Below the pieces are notes generated by a model. That model made no database searches, was not told where the DNA came from, and saw only the letters and a list, made by a program, of their open reading frames with translations. The translations under genes were made by a program, and so were the position numbers. From positions 72,095 through 114,166 of IMG/VR virus record IMGVR_UViG_3300022555_000023: 42,072 bases of DNA, one strand, 5' to 3'. The stretch is from a virus. Taxonomy: Duplodnaviria > Heunggongvirae > Uroviricota > Caudoviricetes. This document shows positions 13,133 to 40,372 of this stretch, piece after piece; the stretch's first letter is position 1, and each line of letters begins with the position of its first letter.

Positions 13133-13152
13133 TATCATGCAACCCGTGTGCC
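13133..13152 (-). promoter_or_regulatory. Sigma54-like GG-N10-GC motif, copy 1
   Basis: GGCACACGGGTTGCATGATA, intergenic. Confidence 0.7.
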
Positions 13153-13160
13153 GTTCGGAT

Positions 13161-13562
13161 TCATTTTCGGCGGCGGGCCAGACGCTGCTGTTTGCCCAGT
13201 TCGGTCTCCTCCTGCCAGACCCGGAAGCCGTGAAGCCGCCCATAGGTATTCCACAGGCGGGCGTACTGCGTTAAGGCCGTAGCGATGGTCAGGTGCTGGC
13301 CAATTCTGGTCTTGCGGCCCTCCTCGCCGAAATCGGTGAACGTCTCCACCGCAGCGTTCAGCAGGCTGCGTTCGCCGGTCGTCGCTGATGCCATATACTG
13401 GCGACGGGGCAGCTTCGCGGCGTGCTTCCGCAGTTGCTCGTTCTCGCGTTGCATGGCGGCGGTCAGCTTCAGGTGCTGCTCCCAGGCTCGGCGGCGGTCG
13501 TAGTCAGTACACCAGGGTGCCCAATCGTCGGGCATGGGAGCGAGGTCGGCTGTGCGGGGCAT
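13161..13562 (-). CDS. Hypothetical protein
   Basis: Start reassigned to ATG 13562 (SD GGAG). Confidence 0.55.
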   Translation of the reverse strand: MPRTADLAPMPDDWAPWCTDYDRRRAWEQHLKLTAAMQRENEQLRKHAAKLPRRQYMASATTGERSLLNAAVETFTDFGEEGRKTRIGQHLTIATALTQYARLWNTYGRLHGFRVWQEETELGKQQRLARRRK

Positions 13563-13664
13563 GATACGGTCTCCATTGTTTAAATACCCGTGCCGAGGTC
13601 GGCTGGCTTTCGCCAACCGTATGCCGCCCAAGGCATCTCGGCACGGGGAGCAGAAGTTCGTTGG

Positions 13665-14072
13665 TTACGGGGTTGTTGCTTCGACCTTGAAGGTCACGCT
13701 GCGTTCACCGCTGGTGATACCTACACCCACGTCGAAGTTCAGGTCGAGGTTGCGGAAGCGGTCGCTACTGGTCAAAAACTCGATGGCCACGCGGTCTAGT
13801 GCCTGCTGGATGGCCTCCTGAAGCATTTCGATGTGGGCCTCGCCAAACTTGCTCTTCGGCGTGACGGGCATCGGCGGTAACACGCCGTTTCCGTCCTGAG
13901 CCACAACCGAATCGTAAGACCACCTGCGAGCCTGTTCCGACATGCGGTTCCATACTGTCGGTGACAGATCGAACGTGGCTTGGCTGATTCGCTTCAGGTA
14001 ATCTTGCTCGTCCTCGGTCGGGCGGCGACCAACCTGGTTTGTCGCGGCCAGGATTTCACTTTCGACGCTCAT
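13665..14072 (-). CDS. Hypothetical protein, paralogue family A (copy 2)
   Basis: MSVESEILAATNQ...EDEQDYLKRI...VWNRMSEQARRW. Confidence 0.75.
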   Translation of the reverse strand: MSVESEILAATNQVGRRPTEDEQDYLKRISQATFDLSPTVWNRMSEQARRWSYDSVVAQDGNGVLPPMPVTPKSKFGEAHIEMLQEAIQQALDRVAIEFLTSSDRFRNLDLNFDVGVGITSGERSVTFKVEATTP

Positions 14073-14557
14073 GGTGATTCATCCTCGTCGGGCGTCAGCA
14101 CGAAGTCGTCATCGAGTATAGACTCGGTTGCGAAATGCTTCTCGCATACCTTGTGGATCATCGCGTCGAACGCCTTCTCCTGCTTCTCACCCCATCCATC
14201 GATGGCCTCGCGTACTGCCGGCAGGCCGCCTTGCTCGAAGATCGCAGGTATTTCTAGCTCAACAAAAATAGCCCAAGGGTAAGACAACAAGGCATGGTCG
14301 GGTAAGATCTGCTTCATCTTAAAACGAAGGCGGCGGAAGGCCCACCGATACCACCAACCCCTGCTCGTGGACTTCGTATACCACGCCGTGCGGTGCAGGG
14401 CCAGACTCGCAACCACATTGACTGCGTACAGGGCGAAGATCACAGCAACCAGCTTCGACCACCACGGGCCGCGAATGCAGACGAACATCAGATAGAGGTA
14501 GAACACCACCCCAACCACCGTCTGCACCCGCCCTGGCCACAACTTGAACTTGCTCAT
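14069..14557 (-). CDS. Putative membrane protein
   Basis: Two hydrophobic stretches near the N-terminus (VVGVVFYLYLMFVCI; LVAVIFALYAVNVVASLAL). Confidence 0.65.
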   Translation of the reverse strand: MSKFKLWPGRVQTVVGVVFYLYLMFVCIRGPWWSKLVAVIFALYAVNVVASLALHRTAWYTKSTSRGWWYRWAFRRLRFKMKQILPDHALLSYPWAIFVELEIPAIFEQGGLPAVREAIDGWGEKQEKAFDAMIHKVCEKHFATESILDDDFVLTPDEDESP

Positions 14558-14599
14558 GATCTTGCTCCATTTATCTTGCTGCCGAAGAATTCGCCCAAA

Positions 14600-14839
14600 T
14601 CATGATCCAACCGCGTCGAACGTCGGCAGAACGGCACCCGCCGGAATCTGCTTACACTCATCGTAAACATCGGACGCTGAATTGAACCAGTCCTTGGCAT
14701 CCTGTGACAAGGCATCCCACACCGACTCGGGCATGTCATCGACAGCCCATGCGATTCGATTCAAGTAGACCTGCTCGGTCTCTTCCGCACCACGTGGGTG
14801 TTGTCCAGTTGCCTGCAAAAGTTCAGTCTCGATATTCAT
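14600..14839 (-). CDS. Hypothetical protein, paralogue family A (copy 3)
   Basis: MNIETELLQATGQ...ETEQVYLNRI...VWDALSQDAKDW; SD AAGGAG. Confidence 0.75.
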   Translation of the reverse strand: MNIETELLQATGQHPRGAEETEQVYLNRIAWAVDDMPESVWDALSQDAKDWFNSASDVYDECKQIPAGAVLPTFDAVGS

Positions 14840-14898
14840 AACTTCTCCTTACAGATTCGCAATTAGAGTAAATGTAGTACGTTAAATCGTGCCAAGAC

Positions 14899-15579
14899 TT
14901 ACAGCGTAACTGCGGCGGTCGCGGCCTCGCTTTTGATGGTGGGAAACCGCAGAACGTCAACGAAGTCGTCGGGAACCGTTTTGACTACGCCCGGAATCCC
15001 GTCCGTGACGCTGCTGATGTAGTACCCTCGCTTGACTCGCGAGAAGACTAGCGGGTTGCCCGACTTCACCAAGAGCAGCCGCACCGGGTTGGCCCAAAGG
15101 CCCATCACCGCCAGCGGGCCGGTCGTTTGCTCCGCAGCCCACTTGGCTCGGTCGGCGAGGCTTCCAGGCCAGTGCTGGATGAGCTTGCCGAGGACTTCGC
15201 TATCGCACTCGGTCTGCAATTCCAGCTTGTACTGTGCCGCCAGTTCGCGGTAGTTATGCACCACACCGTTGTGGACGAGCCAGCCGCGACCCGCTTTGTG
15301 CGGATGGTTGTTCTCGTTAATCTGGACGTTACCGTGCGTCGCCCACCGAGCATGGGCTACAACCGCCAGTGCCCCGTCAACCTGATCGACGTCCGCACCG
15401 TTGTTGCTGGCGAATTCGCCCGGTCGCTTCCAGGCGTGAAGCTCACCCTGCTGATCGATCCAGGCCAGCCCTGCGGCGTGACCGCCACGGCGTGCTTCGC
15501 ACGCGAGAATGATCTTCTTCAGGGTTTCGATGTGCGGGCCGCGCCCGTCTTGACTGATAAAGCCACTGATTCCGCACAC
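14899..15579 (-). CDS. Class II (Ntn) glutamine amidotransferase
   Basis: N-terminal MCGISG nucleophile, HARWATHG, NNHPH, HNGVVHNY, DSEVL. Confidence 0.9.
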   Translation of the reverse strand: MCGISGFISQDGRGPHIETLKKIILACEARRGGHAAGLAWIDQQGELHAWKRPGEFASNNGADVDQVDGALAVVAHARWATHGNVQINENNHPHKAGRGWLVHNGVVHNYRELAAQYKLELQTECDSEVLGKLIQHWPGSLADRAKWAAEQTTGPLAVMGLWANPVRLLLVKSGNPLVFSRVKRGYYISSVTDGIPGVVKTVPDDFVDVLRFPTIKSEAATAAVTL

Positions 15580-15625
15580 AGTAATCTTCCTTTCAATATG
15601 GTGTATTGTTCTTTCCTGCTGGCTA

Positions 15626-15645
15626 TATCATGCACTTCGCGTGCC
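15626..15645 (-). promoter_or_regulatory. Sigma54-like motif, copy 2
   Basis: GGCACGCGAAGTGCATGATA; its TGA is the stop codon of the HNH gene. Confidence 0.7.
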
Positions 15646-16242
15646 ATAAGCCCTGGCCGGTTTTGTAATCGATTTTTCCACATCCCATCCGTGAGCAATC
15701 CGCATTCGCAGCGTACTTTCATTATCCAACACGCACCGTGCGTCCTGAAACCACTGACCCACCGTTTTCGTTTCGCCCCAGGCCGTGAACCACTCCACGT
15801 TCAAATTGTTGCGGACATTCTCAGCCTGCGTAACCCACCGGCAGTTGCCGGGAGTATAATTCTTCCTTCCGTCCTTGCGGTCGCATACCAGCCCGTCGCG
15901 GTAGCCGTTCGCCAGTGCCCAATCCCTGAAGTTCAGGTAGCGGTGCCATGATCGGCACATCCGTATCCCTTGGGCTCCGTAGTGCCGATAGCTGGTACTG
16001 TTACGGTTGTAGCAGCGGCCTCGTATCCCTTCCCAAATATCGTGCAGCCTTGTCCCGCTTTCTCCGTGGTTGTCGCGGGCCGGTATAGCCCGCCCTGCGG
16101 ACACCTCGACGTTCCAGGTCGTCTGGCCTAGTTGTACCAGCCTGCTCACTCTCGCGTAACACGGCGGGCACAGGCCCCGCGACAGGGCTTTGCAGCGGCA
16201 TCCCTCAGTCATACATTCGTCTGGCTGCGTTCGGCGTTTCAT
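15628..16242 (-). CDS. HNH-type homing endonuclease
   Basis: RLHDIWEGIRGRCYN...YRHYGAQGIRMC..W...DRKDGRKNYTPGNCRWVTQAENVRN. Confidence 0.85.
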   Translation of the reverse strand: MKRRTQPDECMTEGCRCKALSRGLCPPCYARVSRLVQLGQTTWNVEVSAGRAIPARDNHGESGTRLHDIWEGIRGRCYNRNSTSYRHYGAQGIRMCRSWHRYLNFRDWALANGYRDGLVCDRKDGRKNYTPGNCRWVTQAENVRNNLNVEWFTAWGETKTVGQWFQDARCVLDNESTLRMRIAHGWDVEKSITKPARAYGTRSA

Positions 16243-16259
16243 AACGTCCTCCTACAGCT

Positions 16260-16288
16260 ATTCTAGACGGGTGTCCGCGATTAGTCAA
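16260..16288 (-). promoter_or_regulatory. Sigma70-like promoter of the HNH gene
   Basis: TTGACT-N17-TAGAAT, then SD AGGAGG and ATG 16242. Confidence 0.7.
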
Positions 16289-16307
16289 CTAGCCATCACG
16301 GGCACAC

Positions 16308-16514
16308 TTACTTCAGCATATCTGGGCGATTCTGCTTTACCCAGTCGATCAGGTCTTGCAGATCGGCGGAATGCGTCACGCAGTCCGCGTTGGTTATTAC
16401 GACAACCAGTCGATCAGCATATTCGTCCGAAACTTCGTCCGAATAGTCTTCGACTGACATCACGCTAACTTCCAGACCCTCATCGTAACTGCGAATTTCC
16501 TGTTCTTCACACAT
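16308..16514 (-). CDS. Small acidic hypothetical protein
   Basis: 68 aa, SD AAGGA, downstream of motif copy 3. Confidence 0.6.
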   Translation of the reverse strand: MCEEQEIRSYDEGLEVSVMSVEDYSDEVSDEYADRLVVVITNADCVTHSADLQDLIDWVKQNRPDMLK

Positions 16515-16585
16515 GATACTCGTCCTTCTGCTCTATGGGTTTGGTTCGGTAAGGCCCGTGGGTGCGGGCGGGCTTCTCTAGACAC

Positions 16586-16605
16586 TACCATGCATCTGGT
16601 GTGCC
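16586..16605 (-). promoter_or_regulatory. Sigma54-like motif, copy 3
   Basis: GGCACACCAGATGCATGGTA, intergenic. Confidence 0.6.
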
Positions 16606-16611
16606 TTTGGT

Positions 16612-17487
16612 TTACAACTCGTCGCGGGCCTCGCTATCGTAGCGTTTGGCAAGGCGGCGAAACTCGGCCATGATCGTGTCGGCAGGAATCAGGTCGGGGG
16701 CGATCAAGCCGTACTTGTTTCCGCCGTGCCGCCGTGCATAGGCTTCAGCCCAGGCAAGGTAGCCGAGGAGACGCTCGCACTCACCCGCGCCCTCGCCCTT
16801 CTTCCGCCAGCCACCTTGCAGGGGCTTGGGCGACCAAGCTGGGCATCGCTTGCCGTTTTGGGCTCGCTCGACGATGCCCAGGCAAACCTGAATCCACCCG
16901 ACTATCTTCGTGGCAGAAATGCTGCCGCTGAAGATTCGGAACTCGACCGTCTGCTTGCCACCGGGCCGAATGTTGGCGAGGTTCAAAGCGTGGTAGCGGT
17001 CGGAGGTAGCGTGACGCTGCACCTGCGTTGGTCGCAGGTACTGCCGCACCGGCTTGCTGTAGCGTCCTCGCTCGCGAGCCTTCGTGCCCGTGATCGCGTA
17101 CAGTCCCTTCTCAAGGTATGCCACTATCGTGATGAGACGTTTCAGGCTTTCCGCGTTCACCTCGCTGCGGCTCTGGTCCCATCCGATATGGACGTGGACG
17201 CCGCAGGTCGTGTTGACGATATGACCTTTTTCCCGCAGGGCTTGGCAGGCGGCGACCACTTGGGCCATCCCCGCCGCACCGCGAAGAATCGGGCTGATCA
17301 CCTCGCAGGCGTTCTGGTTGCTGTTGTTGCAGCTAATGCTGCCGTCCCCCTTGCACCGCCATCCGTGCGGCAGGTAGGGAACCTGAACTGGCGACCCGTA
17401 AGCTCCGACCCGCAGGCCAGCGTTGCGGGCGTCTTGGCCCGCAAGGGTCTCGATCTCAACACCAAAGGTCAGCTCATTCGCGTTCAT
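16612..17487 (-). CDS. Putative amidoligase (COOH-NH2 ligase type 2, Amidoligase_2-like)
   Basis: TFGVEIET, KGDGSI, CEVISPIL, CGVHVHIG, RYHALNL, TVEFRIFSGS. Confidence 0.85.
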   Translation of the reverse strand: MNANELTFGVEIETLAGQDARNAGLRVGAYGSPVQVPYLPHGWRCKGDGSISCNNSNQNACEVISPILRGAAGMAQVVAACQALREKGHIVNTTCGVHVHIGWDQSRSEVNAESLKRLITIVAYLEKGLYAITGTKARERGRYSKPVRQYLRPTQVQRHATSDRYHALNLANIRPGGKQTVEFRIFSGSISATKIVGWIQVCLGIVERAQNGKRCPAWSPKPLQGGWRKKGEGAGECERLLGYLAWAEAYARRHGGNKYGLIAPDLIPADTIMAEFRRLAKRYDSEARDEL

Positions 17488-17556
17488 GTTTCTGCTCTCG
17501 GTTAGGCCCGCCCGCGTTTGGGTCTCGCGGGCGGGCGGGTTTGGTTTCTACCGTAG

Positions 17557-17576
17557 TATCATGCAACCGCCGTGCC
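17557..17576 (-). promoter_or_regulatory. Sigma54-like motif, copy 4
   Basis: (T)GGCACGGCGGTTGCATGATA, an exact TGGCACG-N4-TTGCA match. Confidence 0.8.
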
Positions 17577-17590
17577 AGTCGCATTCAATT

Positions 17591-17920
17591 CTACAGTTCG
17601 CCGTCTGCGTCGGGCGGGGTGACCTCGTCCTCGACCTCGCCGAGGTTGTCGTTCACCATCGGCTGCTCGTAATGGGCCGAGACGGGGGCGGGCTCCAGGT
17701 TGCCGATTCGCTCGACCAACCCGTAGGTTTCACGCTGGCCGTTGCTACGGCGAACCAAATCGGGGTGGGCCGCGACCACTTCGCGGATCCACTCGGCGGG
17801 ACGGCAAGTCTTCGCCACAAGGGCATCGACGCTGCGGAACATAAAGGCTTGGTTGTCCAAGGCCAGGAACAAGGCGTACTCAGGCGTATCCTCGTCGGTG
17901 ATCACTTCGCGCCAGGGCAT
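17591..17920 (-). CDS. Hypothetical protein
   Basis: Probable start ATG 17920 (MPWREVITD). Confidence 0.55.
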   Translation of the reverse strand: MPWREVITDEDTPEYALFLALDNQAFMFRSVDALVAKTCRPAEWIREVVAAHPDLVRRSNGQRETYGLVERIGNLEPAPVSAHYEQPMVNDNLGEVEDEVTPPDADGEL

Positions 17921-18118
17921 GGTATTCTTCCTTCTGCTTTCAGGGTTTACCCAGAGGTCTTTCTGCTCCCCACTTCGTTTCAGAAGTGCAACCCTCGCCG
18001 AGTTGTGCGGTTGGGGCCATACTATCCCCGATTGTAGGCAGCCTCGCGGCACCGCATTTGAAGGAGCAGGAAAACATCTGGGTTGTCGGGTTGTTTAGCC
18101 TCGCGGCTCTGTGGGTAG

Positions 18119-18138
18119 TATCATGCAACCGCCGTGCC
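18119..18138 (-). promoter_or_regulatory. Sigma54-like motif, copy 5
   Basis: (TT)GGCACGGCGGTTGCATGATA, identical to copy 4. Confidence 0.8.
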
Positions 18139-18165
18139 AATTGCCAAAATTTGAATTCGCGGATT

Positions 18166-18777
18166 TCAGTCGTATTCCACGATAGTCCTGCCAGCCTGGG
18201 CCTGCCCGCTGACCGTTAGCCTGCGGCGGGGCAATGGACCGCGAACGGTCGGGGCTGGCGGGGCGTTGTCGAGGGACTTGCGGGTCAGGGGGCGGCGGGC
18301 GATAGGTCGCCGAACCAAACCTGCCGACGCGTGCGACGGTATTGGGGGCAGTTCGGCGGGTTCGGGCGTCTTGGCCCGTTCTACCACCGTACCCACTGCC
18401 ACGCCACGGCGGGCCGCCTGTGCGGCCACGGCGGGCTTGTGGGCCTTGCTATTGGCCCGCGTATCGGCCACAGACGGTCGGGGCGGCTGCGGTACGAACT
18501 TGGGGGCATCGGGGTCGGGGCGAGAACCCGGCGATGGTACGATCCGCCATTCGGCGGCCACGCTCCCGTCAGGGTTCTTGCGGGTGACGTGGGCCTCCAT
18601 ATCATACTCGCCCTTGGGCTTGCCCTCGATCTTCACCTCTTCATAGGTAATGCCGGTGCCTGCTGTCGCAACGAAGCAGCTATGTGCCGCCCATCGCAGG
18701 TTGCTTCCAGTGCCGTAGCTGACCGGCCTCCAGGTCGTATCCTTTGGTGTCTTGAATAGTGCTGTGACGTGCATCAT
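18166..18777 (-). CDS. Hypothetical protein, Pro/Arg-rich C-terminal half
   Basis: 203 aa, SD AGGAGG. Confidence 0.65.
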   Translation of the reverse strand: MMHVTALFKTPKDTTWRPVSYGTGSNLRWAAHSCFVATAGTGITYEEVKIEGKPKGEYDMEAHVTRKNPDGSVAAEWRIVPSPGSRPDPDAPKFVPQPPRPSVADTRANSKAHKPAVAAQAARRGVAVGTVVERAKTPEPAELPPIPSHASAGLVRRPIARRPLTRKSLDNAPPAPTVRGPLPRRRLTVSGQAQAGRTIVEYD

Positions 18778-20782: not shown

Positions 20783-20810
20783 ACTCTAGTTAATTCTATG
20801 CTACCGTCAA
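20783..20810 (-). promoter_or_regulatory. Sigma70-like promoter
   Basis: TTGACG-N16-TAGAGT; same -35 and spacing as 11116-11143. Confidence 0.4.
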
Positions 20811-21090
20811 GCCCTTGGAATCCGTATTCTGGCAAATCGGTCATTTCATCCAGACACCATCATCACCGATAACTAAAATCATCCTTGACTAGCCAAGTCG
20901 CCGAGTCTATCTTGGTACTGACGCGAGGCAAGCGATCCTTTCTGACGCCGGCGGTGATCATTACGGTCACCGACCGGCTTCTTTACTTTGAGGACTTGCC
21001 CCCGAGGCTGTGCTTGACCTACACTTCCATAGTTGGAAGACTGGATAAAAAATACCGCCAGATCATCATGGTGGGATTAGTTAGATAGTA

Positions 21091-23833: not shown

Positions 23834-24754
23834 TCAAACTTGGATCATACTGAATGGATCGATGCGTTCCGTTACGGCGGCCCGCATCAGCTTATCCATC
23901 GCTCGGGCCTCCAACTGCCGAATGCGTTCTTTGCCGACGCCAAGGGCCTTGCCGACGTCCGTAAGAGTCATCGCGTCGCGATCAAGTCCGAATCGGCTGA
24001 CAATGATGAAATGCTCGCGTTCGTCAAGGTGCTGAAGCATCTTGGCGATTCCATGCTGCCGGGCCTGCATCACGTCAACACGATGCGGAAGGTCGCTTAA
24101 CGGGCTTTCCACGTTATCCAGCGGGTTCTCCTCGCCCGTGCGGAAACGTGCCAGTTGCCGAATCTCCACAGCGATGCTGCGTGAATAGTTCTTGATCAAT
24201 GCCCAGGTCGCATAGGTTGAAAACCTGAAGCCGCGGTCGTAATCGAACCTGTCCACAGCCCGCATCAGGGAGATATTGCCGTCGCTAATCAGGTCGAACA
24301 GTTCATCGCTGCTGTGTGCATACCGGCGGGCGATGTTCACCACCAGTCGCAAGTTGGCCGTGATGATCTCGTTGCGGACGGCCATAGCCTGGTCGGCTAA
24401 TTGCAGAATCTCATGCATGGCCCGCACGGATGGCCGGTGCGAATCAAGATCATCTCGCAGGCGGGACGTCTTGTATTTCAAGTAGTTCATCTTGCGGAAC
24501 AGGTGAGCCTCCTGTTCCCGCGTCAGCAGGGGCGTATCGTACAGTGCCCGCAGGTACGGAGGCAGGCCCGGTGTGGGTTTCACGGCCTTCACGGGCGGTC
24601 CTACCGGGCGATCCGCAAGGATGCGTGCCTCCTGTCGGGATTTGACGCGGCTAAATGATATGTTCGGAATATAAACCAAGTCCAGCTCACGCACCCGAAC
24701 AATCAGGCGGTGACGAACAGCGTCAATGGGTCTGCGGGCCACGGATGTGAGCAT
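23834..24754 (-). CDS. Sigma70-family (RpoD/RpoS-like) sigma factor
   Basis: YLRALYDTPLLTREQE, ANLRLVVNIARRY, LISDGNISLMRAVDRFDYDRGFRFSTYATWA, region 4 TLTDVGKALGVGKERIRQLEARAM. SD AGGAG. Confidence 0.92.
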   Translation of the reverse strand: MLTSVARRPIDAVRHRLIVRVRELDLVYIPNISFSRVKSRQEARILADRPVGPPVKAVKPTPGLPPYLRALYDTPLLTREQEAHLFRKMNYLKYKTSRLRDDLDSHRPSVRAMHEILQLADQAMAVRNEIITANLRLVVNIARRYAHSSDELFDLISDGNISLMRAVDRFDYDRGFRFSTYATWALIKNYSRSIAVEIRQLARFRTGEENPLDNVESPLSDLPHRVDVMQARQHGIAKMLQHLDEREHFIIVSRFGLDRDAMTLTDVGKALGVGKERIRQLEARAMDKLMRAAVTERIDPFSMIQV

Positions 24755-27436: not shown

Positions 27437-27943
27437 CTACAATTCCCCGTTGCGAGAACGCGGACTGACGCGTTTCCGTGTTTTATTTAATTCGACTACC
27501 AGTTCGCTGTAGTATTCACGGTCGGGTAGGAACTCCCACCGACACCCTGTTCTACACATGATGATAAAGCGACGCTCAAGCTCCCAGATGTGGTGTAGAG
27601 TCTCCTGGTGGCTCCATCGAAACCGCTGCATGACGTCCCGATTACGCATCGGGAACCGGCACGTATCTTTGTCCGTGTGATAAAAGCACTCCAGCATGAG
27701 CAGAAGGTCACGCTTGCTAAGATCGTCGAGTAGCTGCTGATCGATGGCTAGAATAAGCCGTCGTGTAGATTCCGAGATAGTACGATGTGGCCCTTGACCG
27801 TCCTGTATGATCGTGTTAGGATGAGGAGTAGGCACTAGCAACCTCCGATTGCTGCAAGCCATGAACAGGCGACCGTCGCGGGTCGCCTGTTCCTCGTTTA
27901 TCGGTATTTCGTTAGCAACTTCCCAACATAGCGAGGTTGCCAC
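27437..27943 (-). CDS. Winged-helix-like protein paralogous to the N-terminus of 26361-27434
   Basis: LDDLSKRDLLL...CRFPM...W...E...ELERRFII..TGCRWEFLP. Confidence 0.6.
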   Translation of the reverse strand: MATSLCWEVANEIPINEEQATRDGRLFMACSNRRLLVPTPHPNTIIQDGQGPHRTISESTRRLILAIDQQLLDDLSKRDLLLMLECFYHTDKDTCRFPMRNRDVMQRFRWSHQETLHHIWELERRFIIMCRTGCRWEFLPDREYYSELVVELNKTRKRVSPRSRNGEL

Positions 27944-28123
27944 CTCCCGTCAACGCGAGGTTATCAAACGCCCGGCCCGCGGCTGCCCACGTCCGCTATG
28001 GGCGGGCGTCGCCGCCGCGGTGTGGCGTCGGATCCGAAGATCCGCCCCTGGCACTATTACTGGCCACCGCAGGCCGAGCTAACGACTAGACACGATGAGC
28101 TTTGCCGTGTCTATTTGTGGTAC

Positions 28124-29201: not shown

Positions 29202-29274
29202 AAAAGGCCGACGAGGTGTTTGCCGAGACATCTTCGTTCATGGTAGATGTAGTCCCGGCGTGCAGTCGGCCTAG

Positions 29275-29650
29275 TGGAGGCGGCGGGGATCGAACCCGCG
29301 TCCCGCGACATTTCCGATCAAGCGTCTACGTGTGTAGTCGATCCTATTTGCAAGCTGTCGTCTCGCGATCCCCGGATCAACAGGGTTGTCGTTCGACCAG
29401 CCGGTAGCATTTTTAATCCACGGCGTGACCAGCAGCGACCGTGAACGATCCGAGTTTACAGCCGGCTTTTGAACCTCTCGGATGGGTTCGCAGTCGGCTC
29501 GTGGTTATTAGGCCACGAGGGCGAAGGCCGGAGCCTTCTCGAACTTGTTTTTGGCAAGTAAGTTTTTGGTCGGCTATTAACGTGGCCTGCTGACCAACCA
29601 CGACACGCAACTCAATCTTCTAGCTGCCCGGTCGAATCCAATTCGCCCCC
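29275..29650 (-). ncRNA. ssrA: tmRNA (one-piece); tag peptide (A)AKNKFEKAPAFALVA
   Basis: 5' GGGGGCGAATTGGATTCGAC and 3' GACGCGGGTTCGATCCCCGCCGCCTCCA (G3:U70; CCA not encoded). Tag ORF 29555-29511 ends in TAATAA. Confidence 0.95.
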
Positions 29651-29728: not shown

Positions 29729-29802
29729 TGGCGGAGACAGGATTTGAACCTGCGACCTTGAGATTATGAATCTCATGAGCTACCGGACTGCTCCACTCCG
29801 CG
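29729..29802 (-). tRNA. tRNA-Met (CAT) with an initiator-like body
   Basis: CGCGGAG TGGAGCAGTCCGGTAGCTC A TGAGA TTCATAA TCTCA AGGTC GCAGG TTCAAAT CCTGT CTCCGCC A; anticodon at 29766-29768. Confidence 0.93.
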
Positions 29803-29855: not shown

Positions 29856-29990
29856 CGTTTCTATCCACCACCTCGGTAACATCCCTCGGTGATGCTCCCG
29901 TCCCTATTATTTGAAGCCCAACGTGTACTAAGCACGCGGCTGAACCGCAGCATAGTACACGTTGGGCCTTGTGTCAACGATGACCCTTCG

Positions 29991-31138: not shown

Positions 31139-31219
31139 GGTGGAACTCCTTAGTTCTTCAGGTTGCTATCATACTGGACACGGTGACCGCCGCGTTGGCG
31201 GTTGTTTTTCCGTTGGGCA

Positions 31220-31239
31220 TATCATGCACTTGACGTGCC
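31220..31239 (-). promoter_or_regulatory. Sigma54-like motif, copy 6
   Basis: GGCACGTCAAGTGCATGATA; its TGA is the stop codon of ORF 31222-31410. Confidence 0.7.
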
Positions 31240-32040: not shown

Positions 32041-32142
32041 GGTCGTTTCAGGGGTTTGTGGTTTATAGAACCGAGGCGGGTGAACCGTAAGCGTTTATTA
32101 CTATCGGTTAGCCTACCTATTTCAGAAGAATTAACATGCGAA

Positions 32143-32640
32143 TCACGTGCCGGTCTGAATCCGAATTCGGTTTATCTTAGCGTTCGCCCCTCGAATGGCT
32201 GTAGCCGCCTGGTTGTACGCGATGGCGGCTTCCCTTGCCGTAGGAAAACACCCCACGTATTGTAGTAACCCGTTACAGCGAATTTGGGCTAAGTAGTACT
32301 TTCCAAGATGGAGACTTACACCCCTGTACAGTACGGTATGATTCGTTGTCCTTCGGTTAAGCTGCTGATCACTTCGCGTAGCCCACCTTACGTTCTTCAC
32401 CCACTCATTCTCCCGGCACTGGTCGCATTCACCACAGGTGTAGCTACCCTCGTTATCTTCGCGGTCAAGAGTGTAGCCTTCTGGTCGTGGGCCTAGAACC
32501 TGGGTGAACTTAGTAAAATCTTGTAAACCCAAGCAGACCGTAATTCCACGACCACCATAGTTAAAATAGGCTTGGTGGCTTGAATTAAAACAGCGGTACT
32601 TCATGTCCCGCCACGCCGTACCAACTGGATTACGCGACAT
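32143..32640 (-). CDS. HNH homing endonuclease with a C-terminal AP2 DNA-binding domain
   Basis: AWRDMKYRC...YGGRGITVC...TLDREDNEG.Y...NVRWATRSDQQLNRR, then YRGVS...YLAQIRCNG..YVGCFPTAREAAIAYN. Visibly AT-richer than its flanks. Confidence 0.88.
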   Translation of the reverse strand: MSRNPVGTAWRDMKYRCFNSSHQAYFNYGGRGITVCLGLQDFTKFTQVLGPRPEGYTLDREDNEGSYTCGECDQCRENEWVKNVRWATRSDQQLNRRTTNHTVLYRGVSLHLGKYYLAQIRCNGLLQYVGCFPTAREAAIAYNQAATAIRGANAKINRIRIQTGT

Positions 32641-32844
32641 AATATAACTCCGAAATGACGCCAACCCGCCCCACGTTTGACCTCACAAGTCACGCAGGAC
32701 GGGTTGGTTAGTCATGATTCGTTTGTCGGCCAAGTTGTGAGGTCAACCGACTGCCCTTATTCTAGTCGGTTTACCTGCGGCGTCAACGGGACGCCGCACT
32801 TTGGGCCGTCACCCGACTCGGTCGTGTTTGCTTTCTGCCTACCC

Positions 32845-32864
32845 TATCATGCGAAGGCTGTGCC
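32845..32864 (-). promoter_or_regulatory. Sigma54-like motif, copy 7
   Basis: (T)GGCACAGCCTTCGCATGATA. Confidence 0.7.
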
Positions 32865-33174: not shown

Positions 33175-33194
33175 TATCATGCGAATGCCGTGCC
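33175..33194 (-). promoter_or_regulatory. Sigma54-like motif, copy 8
   Basis: (TT)GGCACGGCATTCGCATGATA. Confidence 0.75.
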
Positions 33195-33222
33195 AATAAA
33201 TCCGAATTCGACGGTCTACGTC

Positions 33223-34202: not shown

Positions 34203-34222
34203 TATCATGCGAATGGCGTGCC
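34203..34222 (-). promoter_or_regulatory. Sigma54-like motif, copy 9
   Basis: (T)GGCACGCCATTCGCATGATA. Confidence 0.75.
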
Positions 34223-34597: not shown

Positions 34598-34617
34598 TAT
34601 CATGCGAACGCTGTGCC
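34598..34617 (-). promoter_or_regulatory. Sigma54-like motif, copy 10
   Basis: (TT)GGCACAGCGTTCGCATGATA. Confidence 0.75.
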
Positions 34618-34710: not shown

Positions 34711-34807
34711 GACTGCTGTTCGGCCATACCACCTAACAAACCAAACCTACCCGTCCCGCTGTGCGTCTCCAGTGGTATGGCCATGCACGGCGGGCGGGTG
34801 GAGTCTA

Positions 34808-35326
34808 ATGATGTTAGGCTACTGTGATTTCTGCGGAGGGCGGTACAGCGGCAACGCCAACCAGATGTTCTGCTCTCGATCTTGTGCATCAAACGCGGCT
34901 AGGCGATCAGTGCGGCGACGCATCGCTACTGCCGATCATATCTGGGATTGTTCTGGCACACGATTCCTCCGAACCACATCCGCAACGTCAAGCTGCAAGT
35001 GCAACAGCGATACGGGTGCGGCCCATGAGCTAATCGTTTCTGTCGATATGCTTCGACGTGGGTGGGACGTTTACCGTGCGATCTCGGCGGGGTGTGGGCA
35101 TGATCTCGTTGTGGGTATCGGCGACCGCCTGCTCACCGTACAGGTATCGACTGGCAAAATGTACAAGACCACGAGTCTTGTTCAGCACTGCAAAAACCGC
35201 CAGTTCCAGAACGGTAAGTGTGACGTTTTAGCCCTTGTCACCGGAGACATGATACTCTATGCCTTCAGGTCGCCCGAAGACGAGGTGCTATTTCGGAATC
35301 AGACTGTGGAAGCTCCGCCCGTGTAA
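34808..35326 (+). CDS. PD-(D/E)XK homing-endonuclease-like protein with an N-terminal Zn finger
   Basis: CDFC...FCSRSC, then GAAHELIVSVDMLRRGWDVY...HDLVV...LTVQVST. Start ATG 34808. Confidence 0.7.
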   Translation: MMLGYCDFCGGRYSGNANQMFCSRSCASNAARRSVRRRIATADHIWDCSGTRFLRTTSATSSCKCNSDTGAAHELIVSVDMLRRGWDVYRAISAGCGHDLVVGIGDRLLTVQVSTGKMYKTTSLVQHCKNRQFQNGKCDVLALVTGDMILYAFRSPEDEVLFRNQTVEAPPV

Positions 35327-35439
35327 GCCGCCTGTATAGGCCCGCTGTGCGGCAGGCGGCTCGGGTGGCCCGGTAGCCGCAGTCGGGAACACCTCGCCAC
35401 GTCTGGCCTACAGTGGCCCGCACGCGGCATAAAGTCGCC

Positions 35440-36234
35440 TCACAGCTCCCACGTCGGGCGTTCTTCCTCGATATGGCCACCAATTCGGCGTCGGCGGGGC
35501 TTGGGCACGACGGGCGGCGGGGCAACGCTGGCTGCGTAAACCGCCCCCTCGCGGAATGCCACCTCGGCGGTGTTGGTCTTGTGCAAGACGAGCATATCAT
35601 CGGTACGTCGCACCACGTATCCGTACCAGCGGTTTTTGAACCTCTTACTGCGGTCGGTCAGCAGGTCAGCCCCGAACTCAACCACGTCACCTATTTGCAA
35701 CGGTCGCAGCCTGTAGTAACCGTCGTCGCCGTCGCGCACCCGCATCATCCACGCTCGATCCAGGCCTCCCGGTGCGTTCGGGGCAAGCCGCACAGACGCC
35801 ATCCAGTTCCTGCTGCCGGGCGTCTTCTCATAGACCGGCACCCGCAGTAGCACGTCGCGGCACATCGGGAAATCAAAATCACCAGGCCGCAGGCCCAGAT
35901 TTGCTCGGCGAGTGTCCTCCTCCCATCGCATTCGTACCCATTCTCGTACAGCGTCCCGATAGACAACTAGGGCCTGCCTGACGTCGGGAACCCACGAGAA
36001 GTCCGCGATGGGTACAGTGATGCCGTCGCGTGTGATACCGCCTCGCATATCGAGGACAGCTTCGTCGCGGTCGAGGTCGGCCTGATCGACGACGGCGGCC
36101 CAATCATCCGGTGCGGTCGTTGCCCGGAACACCTCGATATCAAACTCGGCTGCCCCATTGCCGCCGGCGGTCACGTCGGCACGGCGACCGGCCTCGCTCA
36201 GCCTAACTCGGATGAAGACTCGCATGTGGGGCAA
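35440..36234 (-). CDS. Hypothetical protein
   Basis: 264-aa ORF, co-oriented with its neighbours. Confidence 0.7.
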   Translation of the reverse strand: MPHMRVFIRVRLSEAGRRADVTAGGNGAAEFDIEVFRATTAPDDWAAVVDQADLDRDEAVLDMRGGITRDGITVPIADFSWVPDVRQALVVYRDAVREWVRMRWEEDTRRANLGLRPGDFDFPMCRDVLLRVPVYEKTPGSRNWMASVRLAPNAPGGLDRAWMMRVRDGDDGYYRLRPLQIGDVVEFGADLLTDRSKRFKNRWYGYVVRRTDDMLVLHKTNTAEVAFREGAVYAASVAPPPVVPKPRRRRIGGHIEEERPTWEL

Positions 36235-36238
36235 TTGA

Positions 36239-36616
36239 CTAGTCCTCGATGATCATGGTTTTTCTGGTATTCCTGATAAGACCAGACACCGAATCACCGA
36301 AGAACGCGTCGATTTGCTTCGCGTATTTTGCAATAAGTTTCACGCTGAGCCTGCCGCCCTCGTGCAGTGTTTTCCACTCACTGTTGGCCCCGCCCAGCGG
36401 GCGTCCGCTGCCGTCTTCAGCATCGGTCATAAGCTGAGAATGATAGTAGTCGGTACATCCCCTGCCGGCCCAACCCGTGAAGCCCGGCATCCACCACAGT
36501 TCCTTCACGGGCTTTCCGCCCCGCACGAGCCTGACCAGCACCTTGCGAAAATTGCCCCACTCACATCCGCCCTCAACCTTGGGCCGCACGATCTGGTCTA
36601 CGATGGTGATCTTCAT
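36239..36616 (-). CDS. Hypothetical protein
   Basis: Start ATG 36616 (ATGA overlap). Confidence 0.65.
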   Translation of the reverse strand: MKITIVDQIVRPKVEGGCEWGNFRKVLVRLVRGGKPVKELWWMPGFTGWAGRGCTDYYHSQLMTDAEDGSGRPLGGANSEWKTLHEGGRLSVKLIAKYAKQIDAFFGDSVSGLIRNTRKTMIIED

Positions 36617-36915
36617 GATTGTGCTTGCTTCCTGTGCTGGTGGCAGTACCCGTTCGCCTTTGGCTTGCGACTGCACTTGCGAATGCCGAATAAATCGTGA
36701 TCGACGATGTTGGCCTGGCAGGTGATCTTGTCGCTGCCGTCATCGCGGCTCTTCTGCACTTTGACCGCCCCGGCGAACGTCATAAAGAAGGAGTGGCCCA
36801 GCGTGTCGCGGCGAATCGGATCCCGCCATAGCTCGACACCGCCCCTGTCCTGCCTCGCCCAGCCTTTGGCCTTCAGGTGTTTCCGCAGCGGATTAGCCCA
36901 GTCTTTGGATTTCAT
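36613..36915 (-). CDS. Hypothetical protein
   Basis: 100 aa; C-terminal CQA...CSRK...YCHQH. Confidence 0.6.
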   Translation of the reverse strand: MKSKDWANPLRKHLKAKGWARQDRGGVELWRDPIRRDTLGHSFFMTFAGAVKVQKSRDDGSDKITCQANIVDHDLFGIRKCSRKPKANGYCHQHRKQAQS

Positions 36916-36927
36916 AGGTACTTCCGA

Positions 36928-37119
36928 TCAAGATGACTTTCCGTTTCGTTCTACGGGTTGGAGGGTCAGGTCGCCCTTCACAAAGTAAATCTGGCATGTG
37001 TTCGATGATACGTCATCGAATAACAGTGCGTTACTCTTCGCACTCGATCCTGAGAACACCTTCACCTTCGGGTTCTGCGGGTCACGGCTGTTGTGCTCAA
37101 TTACTATGTATCGCATCAT
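36928..37119 (-). CDS. Small hypothetical protein
   Basis: 63 aa, SD GAGGA. Confidence 0.55.
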   Translation of the reverse strand: MMRYIVIEHNSRDPQNPKVKVFSGSSAKSNALLFDDVSSNTCQIYFVKGDLTLQPVERNGKSS

Positions 37120-37152
37120 ATCCTCAATCTGGTCTACTCGTTTCGTTTCACG

Positions 37153-37590
37153 CTAGTTGTCCAGATGCGAGTAACAGCTCAGAACATTATCGTAGGTAGT
37201 CATGGCTGTTTTATGCAGACTCGTGCTAAGAATCAAAACGTCCTGCTGGGGCGGCTGCTCTGGAAACGCATCCAGGCGATTTTGACGACACGCTCGGAAT
37301 ATTGCATTCCAGTCAACCCGTTTGTGAATGAACAGGATGCAGAATATATCTTTCTCTGGTACACCGTCATCTCCGTAAATCCCCACGGGGCACTCATACA
37401 GCACGGATCCATCGACGTCTCCGGTAAGATCGACGGCTGCACCGATAGCCTCCATGACCGACATCGCGTCCTCGCCATCAAATCCAATAGCCATCCACCA
37501 TTTGCGGGAATAGTACTTCGCACGAATTTCCTGGTACATCTCAGGATTGGTGCGGGGTACAGCTACATACTTAACGTCGCTGTCGTTCAT
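37153..37590 (-). CDS. Hypothetical protein
   Basis: 145 aa, SD AAGGAG. Confidence 0.65.
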   Translation of the reverse strand: MNDSDVKYVAVPRTNPEMYQEIRAKYYSRKWWMAIGFDGEDAMSVMEAIGAAVDLTGDVDGSVLYECPVGIYGDDGVPEKDIFCILFIHKRVDWNAIFRACRQNRLDAFPEQPPQQDVLILSTSLHKTAMTTYDNVLSCYSHLDN

Positions 37591-38495
37591 GGCTTGTCTC
37601 CTTGTTGATCATTAGACACGTCCACCGGCCCTTCCTCGCCGGTCGGCTGTTGAAGAACAGCCTCGCGGTGAATGATTGCTCCCTTGATCGGCACGATCTT
37701 GGCCACGGTACGGCCCTCGCCCGTCCACCGCAGGCCCAGGTGCGGGCGGCGATAGTGCGGCATCACCTCGACACGTTTGCCGATATCCCAACCCAACACG
37801 CCGCGACGTTCCGCCTTGGCAACGTACTTCTGGTCACCGCTGCGATCATAGTCGTTCCGGTCGGCGGCGAGGACGATGCGTTCGATCAATTCGGGATCAT
37901 CATCCAGTAGGGACAAGGTGAACACCAGACGCCACACATCTAGCATTAGTTCCTCGGGAATCTGGATGCCGTCCATCGCGGATTCCCGCTTCTTGCAACC
38001 GCCGAAGGTCTCCAGCAGCGGCTGGTCGGGCCGCAGCGGCACCCAGTTCGTTGATACCACGGGCAGGCCGCTTATCGTTTCTCCGTAGTCCTGTGCCGTG
38101 AAATAGGCCGGGTGACCTGCGGTTGTGCTGACCGGACCAACCAGCATCGACCGCAGAGTCACGCCGTCGCGGGTCAACGGGTTTCCTTCCTGCGGGAACC
38201 GCAGACACATGACCTGCTTGGGAGACTTCAGCATCTTGCCCGTGATCTGTGACAGGTCGAGGCGGGTCAGCATCGGGATGATCTTAGGCCACACGTTATA
38301 GAAGGGCCGGTTATGCTCCGCCCACCAGCCTTCCATGAACAGGTGAACGCCCAGCACTTCAGCCTCGGCGGATGTTCCGATGCAATGCATATCACGAAAG
38401 TGGTTCGCGTAGAACACCGCAGATGAGACGCCTCTGGGAACCATGCCCAGGCGTTTGGCCGAAACGTAGAACAGTGGGAACTCGTGGAAGTTCAT
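37587..38495 (-). CDS. Hypothetical protein
   Basis: 302 aa; C-terminal PHYRRPHLGLRWTGEGR segment. Confidence 0.7.
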   Translation of the reverse strand: MNFHEFPLFYVSAKRLGMVPRGVSSAVFYANHFRDMHCIGTSAEAEVLGVHLFMEGWWAEHNRPFYNVWPKIIPMLTRLDLSQITGKMLKSPKQVMCLRFPQEGNPLTRDGVTLRSMLVGPVSTTAGHPAYFTAQDYGETISGLPVVSTNWVPLRPDQPLLETFGGCKKRESAMDGIQIPEELMLDVWRLVFTLSLLDDDPELIERIVLAADRNDYDRSGDQKYVAKAERRGVLGWDIGKRVEVMPHYRRPHLGLRWTGEGRTVAKIVPIKGAIIHREAVLQQPTGEEGPVDVSNDQQGDKP

Positions 38496-38734
38496 CGAGC
38501 CTCCTCAAGGCAGCTTTCAACGAGCGTGCTGAGATTTCTATCGCTGCCTGGTGGGGCGGTAATGACTGGTATGTTGAACCGCTTCGCCAATTTGACCTCG
38601 CGTGCTGTTCCTTCGGCGGGCACGTCCCGCGGCGTCAGCACCACGATGACGTCGGCGTTCATGATCGCGGCATCGTTAATCCGCTGAAGCCCTTCGTTCC
38701 AGCGGCCCTGGATCGCTCGGTGTTGAAGGATCAT
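38492..38734 (-). CDS. C-terminal half of a split nucleoside 2-deoxyribosyltransferase-like protein
   Basis: HRAIQGRW...INDAAIMNADVIVVLTP...EGTAREVKLAKRFNIPVI; ATG overlaps the HNH stop. Confidence 0.7.
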   Translation of the reverse strand: MILQHRAIQGRWNEGLQRINDAAIMNADVIVVLTPRDVPAEGTAREVKLAKRFNIPVITAPPGSDRNLSTLVESCLEEAR

Positions 38735-39174
38735 GTAGTACTCCGTATGCGTCGCCGTTCCACGCCGTGAATAGCGTGATATACCATCTTGATCCAGGCT
38801 CGGAACTGAGCATCGGTCATATTCTGTTTTGCTACGTTACACTGCCCGCACACCACTTGGCAGCTAGGCGGGAATCCTGCGGCAATAAGCATCAGAAACC
38901 ACTGCCGCGTATCATATCCCCGCGTTTTGCGGCAACCGTCACCGTTAGTATGATCGAACTGCAAATTCGTCGTGCTGTGGCAGTAAACACACTCCCTGCC
39001 GTAAGCATCAAACATACGTTCCCGCAACTCCTTGCGGTAACGTTTACCGTTCCTTCGATTTAGGATTTGTGCCTTTTCCTTGTATCGTCCGTAGTGGCAC
39101 TGGCTACAAATGTAATTCCTGTTCCGTTTGTGGCCTTCAGGAACCTCTCGCTCGTTGCATACTCTGCATAGCAT
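38731..39174 (-). CDS. HNH endonuclease with Zn-finger motifs
   Basis: CRVC...CSQC...YGRECVYCHSTTNLQFDHTNGDG...CQVVCGQCNVAK; SD GGAGG. Confidence 0.85.
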   Translation of the reverse strand: MLCRVCNEREVPEGHKRNRNYICSQCHYGRYKEKAQILNRRNGKRYRKELRERMFDAYGRECVYCHSTTNLQFDHTNGDGCRKTRGYDTRQWFLMLIAAGFPPSCQVVCGQCNVAKQNMTDAQFRAWIKMVYHAIHGVERRRIRSTT

Positions 39175-39193
39175 ACTTACGCCCTCCAAACAT

Positions 39194-39222
39194 AGTATAG
39201 GCTATACAGGGCATAATGTCTA
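39194..39222 (-). promoter_or_regulatory. Sigma70-like promoter within the HNH cassette
   Basis: TAGACA-N17-TATACT; the -35 TAG is the stop codon of the N-terminal half. Confidence 0.65.
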
Positions 39223-39558
39223 GACCTGTGGCGAATAGACGGCGAATCCGGCCTTCACCAAGGCCACCCGCACTGCGTCCCGCCACTGCACGTATTCCTG
39301 ATGCCGCAGGCTATCCCACTGACCTTCCTGCCACCAGAACTTGATCGGGCCGGCGAGGACGATGATGGGCGGCTCGCGGTCGGGAGACTCGTCCACCTGA
39401 ATCGCACCATGACCTTCGATGGCCAGTCTATCGATCACGCGACCGCTGGCCGTCACAGGGAAGTGAACCCACGATCCTCTGTCGACTCCGGACGGAGCAC
39501 AGGATCCGCCGCAGGTCGGACAAACCGGGCCTTCGGGGTGCTTGTTGGGGCATGTCAT
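39220..39558 (-). CDS. N-terminal half of the split NDT-like protein (with a Cys-rich N-extension)
   Basis: Start ATG 39558 (ATGA overlap); IIVLAGPIKFWW...WRDAVRVALVKAGFAVYSP(QV*). Confidence 0.7.
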   Translation of the reverse strand: MTCPNKHPEGPVCPTCGGSCAPSGVDRGSWVHFPVTASGRVIDRLAIEGHGAIQVDESPDREPPIIVLAGPIKFWWQEGQWDSLRHQEYVQWRDAVRVALVKAGFAVYSPQV

Positions 39559-40013
39559 GACGCGGTCTCCTCGATGAACTCGACCGTCATCGGCACCCGC
39601 AGGTACGGGTGCAGTTCGTGACTGTCGATCTTGCAGTCGGGCTTGCCCTCGATCTCCCACGGCATGATCTGAAAGCTCTTGCCGAAGGGATGATACTTTT
39701 TCTGCTCGGGCTTGAAGGTGACGCAGTAGCCCGAAACGTACCAGTCCAGGCCCTCATACGACGGGAAGCAGACACGTTCACGGTTGAACACAGGCCGGTC
39801 GCCGAGCAGGTAGATGCGGCGGATGACGTACTTATCGCCCGCCTTGTGTTCACCTCGCTGCACGCCGTCCATGCCCTGCTGCCACTCGCGTTCCTCCTCG
39901 TAATAAGCACCCTCCCAGGTTTGGCCCTTGATGGTGACTCGGCACGGGCGAACGTTGCTAGTATTCGGCAGGCTGCGAATCCACTCGCAGACACTTGGGG
40001 TTCCGATAGTCAT
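39555..40013 (-). CDS. Hypothetical protein
   Basis: 152 aa, SD AAGGA, downstream of motif copy 11. Confidence 0.65.
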   Translation of the reverse strand: MTIGTPSVCEWIRSLPNTSNVRPCRVTIKGQTWEGAYYEEEREWQQGMDGVQRGEHKAGDKYVIRRIYLLGDRPVFNRERVCFPSYEGLDWYVSGYCVTFKPEQKKYHPFGKSFQIMPWEIEGKPDCKIDSHELHPYLRVPMTVEFIEETAS

Positions 40014-40372
40014 GATTCAGTTCCTTTCTGACCAGCGGTATCATGCGAATCGTATGCCGACTCGACAGCTTCGCAGCACTGGACAACCTTTTCAGCGGGC
40101 TGCGTCTGTGCCGCGACGGCCAGCAAGATGTTCGGCAGGGCCTGAGCCAGGGTCGCCCGACTGTTCTGGTACGCGGGTGTGGCAGAGCAGGTAGCCCACA
40201 GTTCAGCGGTGATGTCCTGACCCTCGCCCGGTACTGCACCGAGGTTCTCGTTGTAGCACTTGCGGCCCTCCCGCCACCAGCACCGGCCACACTTGGGTCG
40301 GGCCTCGCTGCCAAGAAACTTGAGGAATTCTTCGTGGTTCATATCACCATTCTCCGCTTCCAAATCTACCAC
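40010..40372 (-). CDS. Hypothetical protein with Cys motifs
   Basis: CGRCWW...CYN...CC; start uncertain. Confidence 0.55.
   Translation of the reverse strand: MVDLEAENGDMNHEEFLKFLGSEARPKCGRCWWREGRKCYNENLGAVPGEGQDITAELWATCSATPAYQNSRATLAQALPNILLAVAAQTQPAEKVVQCCEAVESAYDSHDTAGQKGTES
40039..40058 (-). promoter_or_regulatory. Sigma54-like motif, copy 11
   Basis: GGCATACGATTCGCATGATA, inside the 3' end of the upstream ORF. Confidence 0.55.

Follow-up and report, generated by a model that had tools for sequence, protein, structure and literature searches.

The locus and the class A family

The window examined in this study is a stretch of 42,072 nucleotides from the tailed-phage record IMGVR_UViG_3300022555_000023, and it corresponds, in reverse orientation, to positions 17075-59146 of a virus record totalling 112,523 bp (hereafter, the record). 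The window carries a module for replication and nucleotide metabolism, comprising a PolA-UDG fusion, a clamp, a clamp loader, DnaB and an SNF2 helicase, together with an OMP-decarboxylase/PRTase fusion, an amidoligase and a glutamine amidotransferase. It also contains repeated copies of a sigma-54-like motif, GGCAY-N7-GCATGRTA, and the family formed by these copies, referred to here as class A, is the subject of this report. A sequence-only reading of the window had listed 11 copies on the minus strand. All 11 proved exact and in place, and 100 dinucleotide-preserving shuffles yielded no match; likewise, the two copies said to read exactly TGGCACG-N4-TTGCA were found, at 17557 and 18119. Moreover, scanning with a position weight matrix (PWM) uncovered a 12th member that falls outside the listed pattern, GGCACGTGATTCGCATGTTA (tail GTTA), at 32132-32151 on the minus strand, 91 nt upstream of a DUF6011 gene.

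All class A members of the window share this strand. The copy GGCACACGGGTTGCATGATA at 13133-13152 lies 57 nt upstream of the next start codon, and that at 15626-15645 lies 46 nt upstream of a glutamine-amidotransferase-like gene. At 16586-16605, a copy with a GGTA tail directly abuts (GTGTCTAG) a word of a second family, class B, which is described below. The two exact TGGCACG-N4-TTGCA copies occupy 17557-17576, 69 nt upstream of the amidoligase gene, and 18119-18138. The copy at 31220-31239 is followed ~40 nt downstream by another class B word. Two copies precede non-coding DNA: the site at 32845-32864 is followed by ~700 nt of it, in which a sigma-70-type site is also present, and the site at 33175-33194 by a non-coding segment of ~300 nt. 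The copy at 34203-34222 has the top PWM score (34.3 bits), and the one at 34598-34617 lies 56 nt upstream of a 101-aa open reading frame (ORF). Finally, the copy at 40039-40058, of the GGCAT form, overlaps the end of the upstream ORF and stands 25 nt before a start codon. The sequence-only reading had placed every copy upstream of a start codon or a structured non-coding segment. Its account of the placement held, but structure was the exception: only one of the 12 predicted 70-nt leaders, that of the amidoligase site, formed a hairpin strong enough to beat shuffled sequences (z -5.6), and the remaining 11 folded within the shuffle range.

The genome-wide motif scan that the same reading had suggested was then applied to the record. 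With a relaxed pattern, 19 copies were found, 15 on the gene strand at 14.0-46.0 kb and four on the other strand at 8.9-14.0 kb, such that two class A arms diverge near ~14 kb of the record. The PWM scan over the 112.5 kb brought the total to 20 members (16 on one strand, four on the other) scoring 22.9-34.3 bits. Class A is a discrete family, with no PWM score between 12 and 22.9 bits and no hit in the reversed-sequence control. All 20 sites point in the same direction as the gene that follows, with 18 of them in intergenic DNA and two at gene ends. The distance to the start codon is 23-363 nt (median, ~70 nt) for 18 sites, and the other two precede at least 800 nt of non-coding DNA. Behind class A sites lie genes for nucleotide and DNA-modification enzymes, a DNA ligase gene, many small ORFs and two predicted non-coding transcripts. 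When the core was sought without the tail, two matches were found in the record, both inside genes, compared with 2.1 expected by chance. Because core-only matches are at chance level and every member has at most one tail mismatch, the GATA tail appears to be required in this genome. As judged from sequence, class A is best taken as a real promoter class for early or delayed-early genes, at which initiation would occur.

Four DNA runs from lakes and sediment gave contigs that barely differed from the window, and among the variants listed none fell inside a motif copy. In one metagenome contig, from the X4 run, window position 17589 is joined to 34585, skipping 17 kb, and both points adjoin class A copies (17557 and 34598). 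This joint, which has only 36 nt on one side, could be an assembly artefact or the product of promoter-repeat recombination.

Class A sites match the sigma-54 consensus

The class A logo in this genome reads T-GGCAC-G-N4-T-Y-GCATGATA. The separation of GG from GC is exactly 10 nt in 20/20 sites of this phage and in 15/15 sites of its sister phages (described below), and none of the 35 departs from GGCA (-25 to -22) or GCAT (-13 to -10). To examine secondary positions, 33 independent sites were used, namely the 20 own sites and the 13 of 15 sister sites that are not identical to any own site. The secondary positions of the sigma-54 consensus were found to be enriched, with T at -26 in 20/33, G at -20 in 25/33, T at -15 in 20/33 and T at -14 in 23/33 (each P<=1e-6 against base composition). 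Moreover, -11 is A at every site, and the sites follow the extended consensus TGGCACG-N4-TTGCW. The core is accordingly a 12-position sigma-54 match (spacing kept; eight invariant core bases and four secondary preferences), and the tail is a phage addition. With respect to the sequence-only reading, the proposal of a promoter class with -24/-12 architecture stood and the resemblance was raised from GG-N10-GC to 12 positions, but the reader of the motif was left between host sigma-54 and a phage factor.

As a comparison set, we used the 720 validated sigma-54 promoters in table S2 of PMC12316311, in which substrings alone were counted: TGGCAC occurred 236 times, TGGCACG 146, TGGCAT 117, TTGCT 247, TTGCA 129 and TTGCAT 48. 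TGGCACG is the commonest -24 form, and TTGCA a common -12 form, among these promoters. The ATGATA extension had been described as lying outside the usual consensus, and the same set bears this out, with no occurrence of TGCATGATA and two of TGCATGAT (PMC12316311).

Conservation in sister phages

Fragments of sister phages contained 15 class A sites at orthologous or intergenic positions. The proteins of these sisters are 86-88% (amidoligase), 88% (DNA ligase) and 74% (DUF6011 protein) identical to those of the present phage. At their sites the core never changes, and -14 is T in 15/15; the tail drifts, with G at -9 in 13/15, A at -8 in 11/15, T at -7 in 11/15 and A at -6 in 9/15. When six clearly alignable orthologous pairs were compared, core and tail were 100% identical, versus 62% for the spacer and 68% for the flanks. 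These values argue that both blocks are under selection, with only the core fixed across the clade. The T at -7 is kept in 20/20 own sites but lost in 4/15 sister sites, and loss of this base would not be expected of a sigma-70-type -10 hexamer.

As to mobile elements, the sister genomes contain ORFs for HNH endonucleases, and inteins within DnaB, SNF2 helicase and PolA, that the present phage lacks at the corresponding places (L194, 3079-3915; L209, 1291-2073; and a 58.7-kb sister contig). The lineages differ mainly by mobile-element load.

Close relatives were also sought in public collections. The phage collection yielded no near match, the best DNA polymerase matches were only 29% identical, and no cultured phage was close. 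In IMG/VR, the motif scan gave single chance-level matches only, the DNA polymerase query found nothing, and the amidoligase query returned contigs of at most 58% identity, all of them without the motif. A further 80 metagenome loci, fetched as possible phage relatives with the 323-aa sigma factor described below, were rejected, as this gene family is chromosomal in Planctomycetota; the lack of the motif in those loci is for the same reason uninformative about phage kin.

Extent of the genome and the likely host

A 192,532-bp contig carries an identical protein. The way in which L201 and L205 map to the record, and a 141-bp offset within a k141 assembly, indicate that the phage genome is circular and ~192.4 kb long, the record being 112.5 kb of it. 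By walking outward, ~28 kb more was recovered, consisting of tightly packed virion-type ORFs. No class A site was present in this added virion module; its gene gaps are mostly <30 nt, and a third promoter class could not be defined within it.

The DNA runs that contain the phage came from lake water and freshwater sediment; the runs listed as containing it included no RNA run. Three genes bear on the host. In metagenome-assembled genomes of Planctomycetota, contigs of chromosomal origin and up to 3.3 Mb in length carry homologues of the 323-aa sigma factor (47-54% identity), and the nearest named cellular homologues of the amidoligase (57-60% identity; window 16612-17487, minus strand) and of the DNA ligase (55-59%; G000 11675-12697, minus strand) are likewise in Planctomycetota. 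Since all three are nearest to this phylum, the host is probably one of its members. In five genomes of the host clade, one rpoN gene each was present (5/5), as were 13-25 Sigma54_activat matches each, several of them on ORFs of <400 aa. The full phage motif was not enriched in these five genomes (15 matches versus 14 in the control).

Other promoter classes and the phage sigma factors

A sigma-70-type class, TTGAC[GC]-N16/17-TA[GA][AG]AT, was also apparent, with 17 strict matches in the record compared with six in the reversed control; 14 of the 17 are intergenic, and intergenic DNA makes up 20% of the genome. In the window, TTGACG-N16-TAAGAT at 11116-11143 (minus strand) lies 46 nt upstream of the gene for a small sigma factor, and TTGACG-N17-TATGTT at 27925-27953 (minus strand) heads a primase-like/DnaB/sigma operon. 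Further sites are at 16260-16288, 20783-20810, 29949-29977 and 32759-32786 on the minus strand, and at 20885-20913 and 27794-27822 on the plus strand. A sigma-70-type promoter, TTGACA-N17-TATGCT, stands upstream of both a tmRNA (29272-29650, minus strand; 166.6 bits with Rfam; tag peptide AKNKFEKAPAFALVA) and a tRNA-Met (29729-29802, minus strand). Two sigma-70-type sites, including that at 11116-11143, were checked in a sister phage, where the hexamers are kept and the spacer has diverged.

The class B word, cGTGTCT[GA]G (GTGTCTRG), has 27 intergenic copies on the gene strand at 28-105 kb, mostly 13-45 nt before a start codon. Class A and class B stand in tandem within 60 nt at three places (window 16578-16605 and 31174-31239, both minus strand, and G000 13950-13991), which suggests two promoters of different classes at one gene. 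The analysis thus provides a map of three promoter classes (sigma-70-type, class A and class B), together with a probable host, for a phage group with next to no experimental data.

The phage encodes three sigma-related proteins, of 323, 174 and 159 aa. The first, a candidate reader of class A, is a 306/323-aa sigma-70-family factor (23834-24754, minus strand) with regions 1.2-2.4 and 4 and nearly no region 3. It is a shortened copy of a family of ~556-aa sigma factors, chromosomally encoded and widespread in Planctomycetota, whose members have an extra N-terminal domain of ~250 aa with a stretch resembling a helix-turn-helix (HTH). Phage and host forms both lack most of region 3 and have an unusual region 2.4 in common (WA[IL][MI]KN[FY]). 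Region 4.2 of the phage protein is primary-like (KERIRQLE), and its region 2.4 is altered, Q437 to K, T440 to S and W434 to A, at what we take to be the -12-reading residues of E. coli sigma-70. A class B word lies 18 nt upstream of its ATG. The second candidate reader, the 174-aa small sigma (10546-11070, minus strand), gives a weak region 2 match and belongs to a virus-only family. It is 64% identical to its sister's counterpart (L210, 5862-6401), versus 86-88% for neighbouring genes, and so evolves much faster than its surroundings; the hexamers of its sigma-70-type promoter are conserved in the sister despite this divergence. A single-sequence AlphaFold model of the protein was unusable (pLDDT 42). 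The third, a 159-aa region-4-only protein, is encoded elsewhere in the genome. An ordinary early class read by host sigma A could, from the position of these promoters, express both phage sigma factors.

The ~556-aa sigma gene was inspected in 47 host copies, and neither a class A nor a class B word lies upstream of it. Host copies such as those in L118 and L134 instead have a conserved GGGCTGTTAAAA followed ~13 nt later by GTATACT (an ordinary TATACT -10), an arrangement resembling an ordinary promoter for the primary sigma, apart from its unusual upstream box.

Host sigma-54 as the favoured reader of class A

Starting from the observed sites, their placement, their consensus match and their conservation in sisters, we infer host sigma-54 as the reader, initiation at the sites and a role for the tail. 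Among the candidates, the host sigma-54 RNA polymerase holoenzyme is the most likely reader, a tentative preference that we would put slightly short of an even chance. Sigma-54 is normally locked until an ATPase activator opens the complex. According to the proposed mechanism, the holoenzyme would bind T-GGCAC-G (-26 to -20) and TT-GCA (-15 to -11) on one helix face, and transcription would start ~12 nt after the GC. The G-A-T-A at -9 to -6 would sit in the melting segment, where it might tune opening or serve an additional phage factor. The closed complex, in turn, might be opened by a solution-acting host bacterial enhancer-binding protein (bEBP), by an unrecognised phage activator or by tail-assisted bypass. 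As for GGCAC at -25 to -21, we know of no base-specific contact by sigma-70-family holoenzymes in this region. If the host is rpoN-positive, sigma-54 holoenzyme should moreover occupy class A sites whoever transcribes from them, so that any other reader would have to compete at every promoter.

The fuller proposal, that a lytic phage of Planctomycetota runs an early class of 20 promoters on host sigma-54 without a conventional enhancer-bound bEBP (by way of a non-homologous phage activator, a solution-acting host activator or the GATA tail), appears unlikely to us in this complete form. In the literature searched, no phage gene class was shown to run on sigma-54, and there is a substantial chance that class A is the first. 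Known phage routes to host RNA polymerase are strong sigma-70 promoters, sigma-appropriation factors, and sigma factors or polymerases of the phage's own. If the sigma-54 reading is true, class A would represent the first known sigma-54-run phage transcription programme and a natural case of enhancer-independent sigma-54 initiation. The phage would have to unlock sigma-54 on demand, which would be relevant to enhancer-dependent transcription and to tight synthetic promoters.

Several findings weigh against host sigma-54. The sequence-only reading had noted that the window encodes no bEBP, which was borne out, and the search was extended as it had proposed: none was found in the ~140 of ~192 kb seen. 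Specifically, the 112.5-kb record contains no Sigma54_activat, sigma-54 DBD or CBD, RpoN-box or GAFTGA signature, and Pfam annotation of the further ~28 kb gave no bEBP or sigma-54 domains. No activator word or inverted repeat is shared at -260 to -30 of 19 sites; solution-acting activators would not need an upstream site. The GATA tail is not a sigma-54 feature, as none of the 720 validated promoters carries it (PMC12316311), and it is seemingly required here; nor does ATGATA follow at any of the 61 TGGCAC-N5-TTGC sites that the host-clade genomes contain. The assignment of the host clade is itself drawn from three genes. A weak TTGAnT element is present at ~-36, 16-19 bp upstream (mostly 18-19), with 3.4/6 matches versus 2.6 in the background. 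Finally, the phage has sigma-related proteins of its own, and because both sigma factors can be made from the sigma-70-type class, there is no need for class A to be first or host-read.

The sequence-only reading had looked to the position of the transcription start site to separate sigma-54 from a sigma-70-family reader. This discriminator fails: in either frame the C of GC falls at -12, so that counting ~12 nt on from the GC or 7 nt on from CATGAT leads to the same nucleotide, and mapping of start sites cannot tell the readers apart.

Alternative readers

Quite possible, if doubtful, is a look-alike promoter read by a phage sigma-70-family factor, either the 323-aa or the 174-aa protein, perhaps together with the 159-aa region-4-only protein. 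In such a promoter, GCATGATA would be an extended -10 (C at -12, A at -11, T at -7), TTGAnT at ~-36 would be the -35, and GGCAC would be touched by an extra domain or partner. Both sigma genes lie behind sigma-70-type promoters conserved in the sister, which would give an ordinary cascade with host sigma A acting first, and the altered -12-reading residues of the 323-aa protein fit the invariant C at -12. As is usual for phage-specific promoters, class A is a discrete family with a near-invariant tail in this genome, and the lack of an activator or enhancer counts for the same side. The 8-nt block also resembles the -10 element of sigma-28, itself an 8-nt element, GCCGATAA. The -35-like element exceeds background, but it is weak, A/T-rich and variably spaced, and the invariant GGCAC would sit in the spacer. 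GAATT[CG] is found 9-19 nt upstream of GGCAC in 7/19 sites (e.g., window 33204-33209 and 18153-18158), which can be counted towards an upstream element. The loss of the -7 T in sister sites speaks against a sigma-70-family reader, and the 12-position sigma-54 match would have to be a coincidence.

Each of the two factors also meets a difficulty of its own. The DNA-reading helices of the 323-aa protein are common to its planctomycete homologues, whose genomes show no enrichment of the motif and in which no class A motif precedes the 47 host gene copies. The small sigma has diverged to 64% between sisters while the class A core is unchanged, and the single-block class B word would suit it better. 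If a phage sigma nevertheless reads class A, it would be a sigma-70-family factor with -24/-12-like geometry, likewise unusual.

Regarding the upstream sequence itself, the GAATTC palindrome (once GAATTG) falls at ~-35 to -45 of class A; GAATTC occurs just 29 times across the whole record. A -35 or UP-like element would be one explanation for the palindrome, a site for a protein another.

We consider improbable an appropriation of the host primary sigma of the T4-middle type, in which that sigma would read CATGAT as a weak -10 while an early phage protein binds TGGCAC and recruits the polymerase. Candidates for the TGGCAC binder are a HARE-HTH protein, whose ORF follows a sigma-70-type promoter, and the region-4-only protein, the identity of which was confirmed. 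Class A sites and sigma-70-type early promoters are intermingled over one region (9-48 kb), just as T4 middle promoters are with T4 early ones, and the A at -11 and T at -7 of CATGAT are present in 20/20 own sites. The box, however, is centred at ~-23.5, nearer to the -10 than any known activator box (the MotA box is at ~-30). The GC at -13/-12 is invariant, whereas all sigma-70-type promoters of this phage have T at -12. Some sister sites have lost the -7 T, and the exact sigma-54 spacing and secondary preferences would be left unexplained.

Very improbable, in our estimate, is binding without initiation, by host sigma-54 holoenzyme or by a phage repressor, with the sites serving as a sink for sigma-54 or core polymerase, or as a roadblock or an operator that times neighbouring genes. 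At consensus sites, sigma-54 holoenzyme is known to form stable closed complexes even when no activator is present (PMC4987338, PMC12316311), and neither an activator nor an enhancer was found for class A. At the three tandem places, the adjoining class B word could be the real promoter. Initiation is nonetheless the better fit to the strict co-orientation, to the position 23-363 nt before start codons and to target genes and non-coding segments without another recognisable promoter. The motif is also not palindromic, and a conserved tail in the melting region suggests opening.

Other architectures were rejected: a MerR-type spacer operator, as there is no dyad symmetry; an ECF-type promoter, in which the conserved -10 block would land in the spacer; and a T7-like promoter, which has ~23 bp of contiguous conservation (-17 to +6), whereas a variable 7-nt spacer interrupts the class A motif. 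No such polymerase was found, the search of the 112.5-kb record for PF00940 (T7-type single-subunit RNA polymerase) having given no match in a search run without a positive control, and Pfam annotation of the further ~28 kb showing none either. Class A also departs from a T4-type late promoter, which has a single block where class A has two, and from the usual sigma-70-family -35/-10 layout with a free spacer, as it has only the weak TTGAnT and an invariant GGCAC inside that spacer.

Comparison with known systems

When class A is set beside promoter classes read by phage sigma factors (T4 late TATAAATA with gp55; SPO1 with gp28 and gp33/34; phiEco32 with gp36), it resembles them in being a discrete, conserved class in a large phage with its own sigma-70-family proteins and with no phage RNA polymerase found (the T7-type search, as noted, lacking a positive control). 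It differs in that those promoters consist of a single -10 block or of -35/-10 elements ~17 bp apart, whereas class A has two blocks 7 nt apart; the closer analogue of T4 late promoters in this genome is the single-block class B (GTGTCTRG).

T4 middle promoters (a MotA box at -30 plus a sigma-70 -10, used with AsiA/MotA) share with class A a phage-specific box, a -10-like element, the lack of a good -35 and interleaving within the early region. Unlike them, class A has its box at ~-24 rather than -30, its GC is invariant at -13/-12, and both its spacing and its sequence match sigma-54.

From bacterial sigma-54 (RpoN) promoters, class A departs by its added GATA tail at -9 to -6 (0/720), by the lack of any enhancer-like element or, in the 140 kb of phage genome seen, of any bEBP, and by consisting of 20 near-identical phage copies rather than the graded sites of a cellular regulon. 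In common with them, it has GG and GC 10 nt apart, the identical GGCAC and GCA core and the same secondary preferences, and the likely host clade has both rpoN and bEBPs. The early promoters of the Streptomyces phage phiC31 are reportedly highly conserved and have been described as sigma-54-like, which we take as a lead and not as evidence. The host of phiC31 is said to have no sigma-54, so that its promoters would be look-alikes; here, the likely host clade has rpoN.

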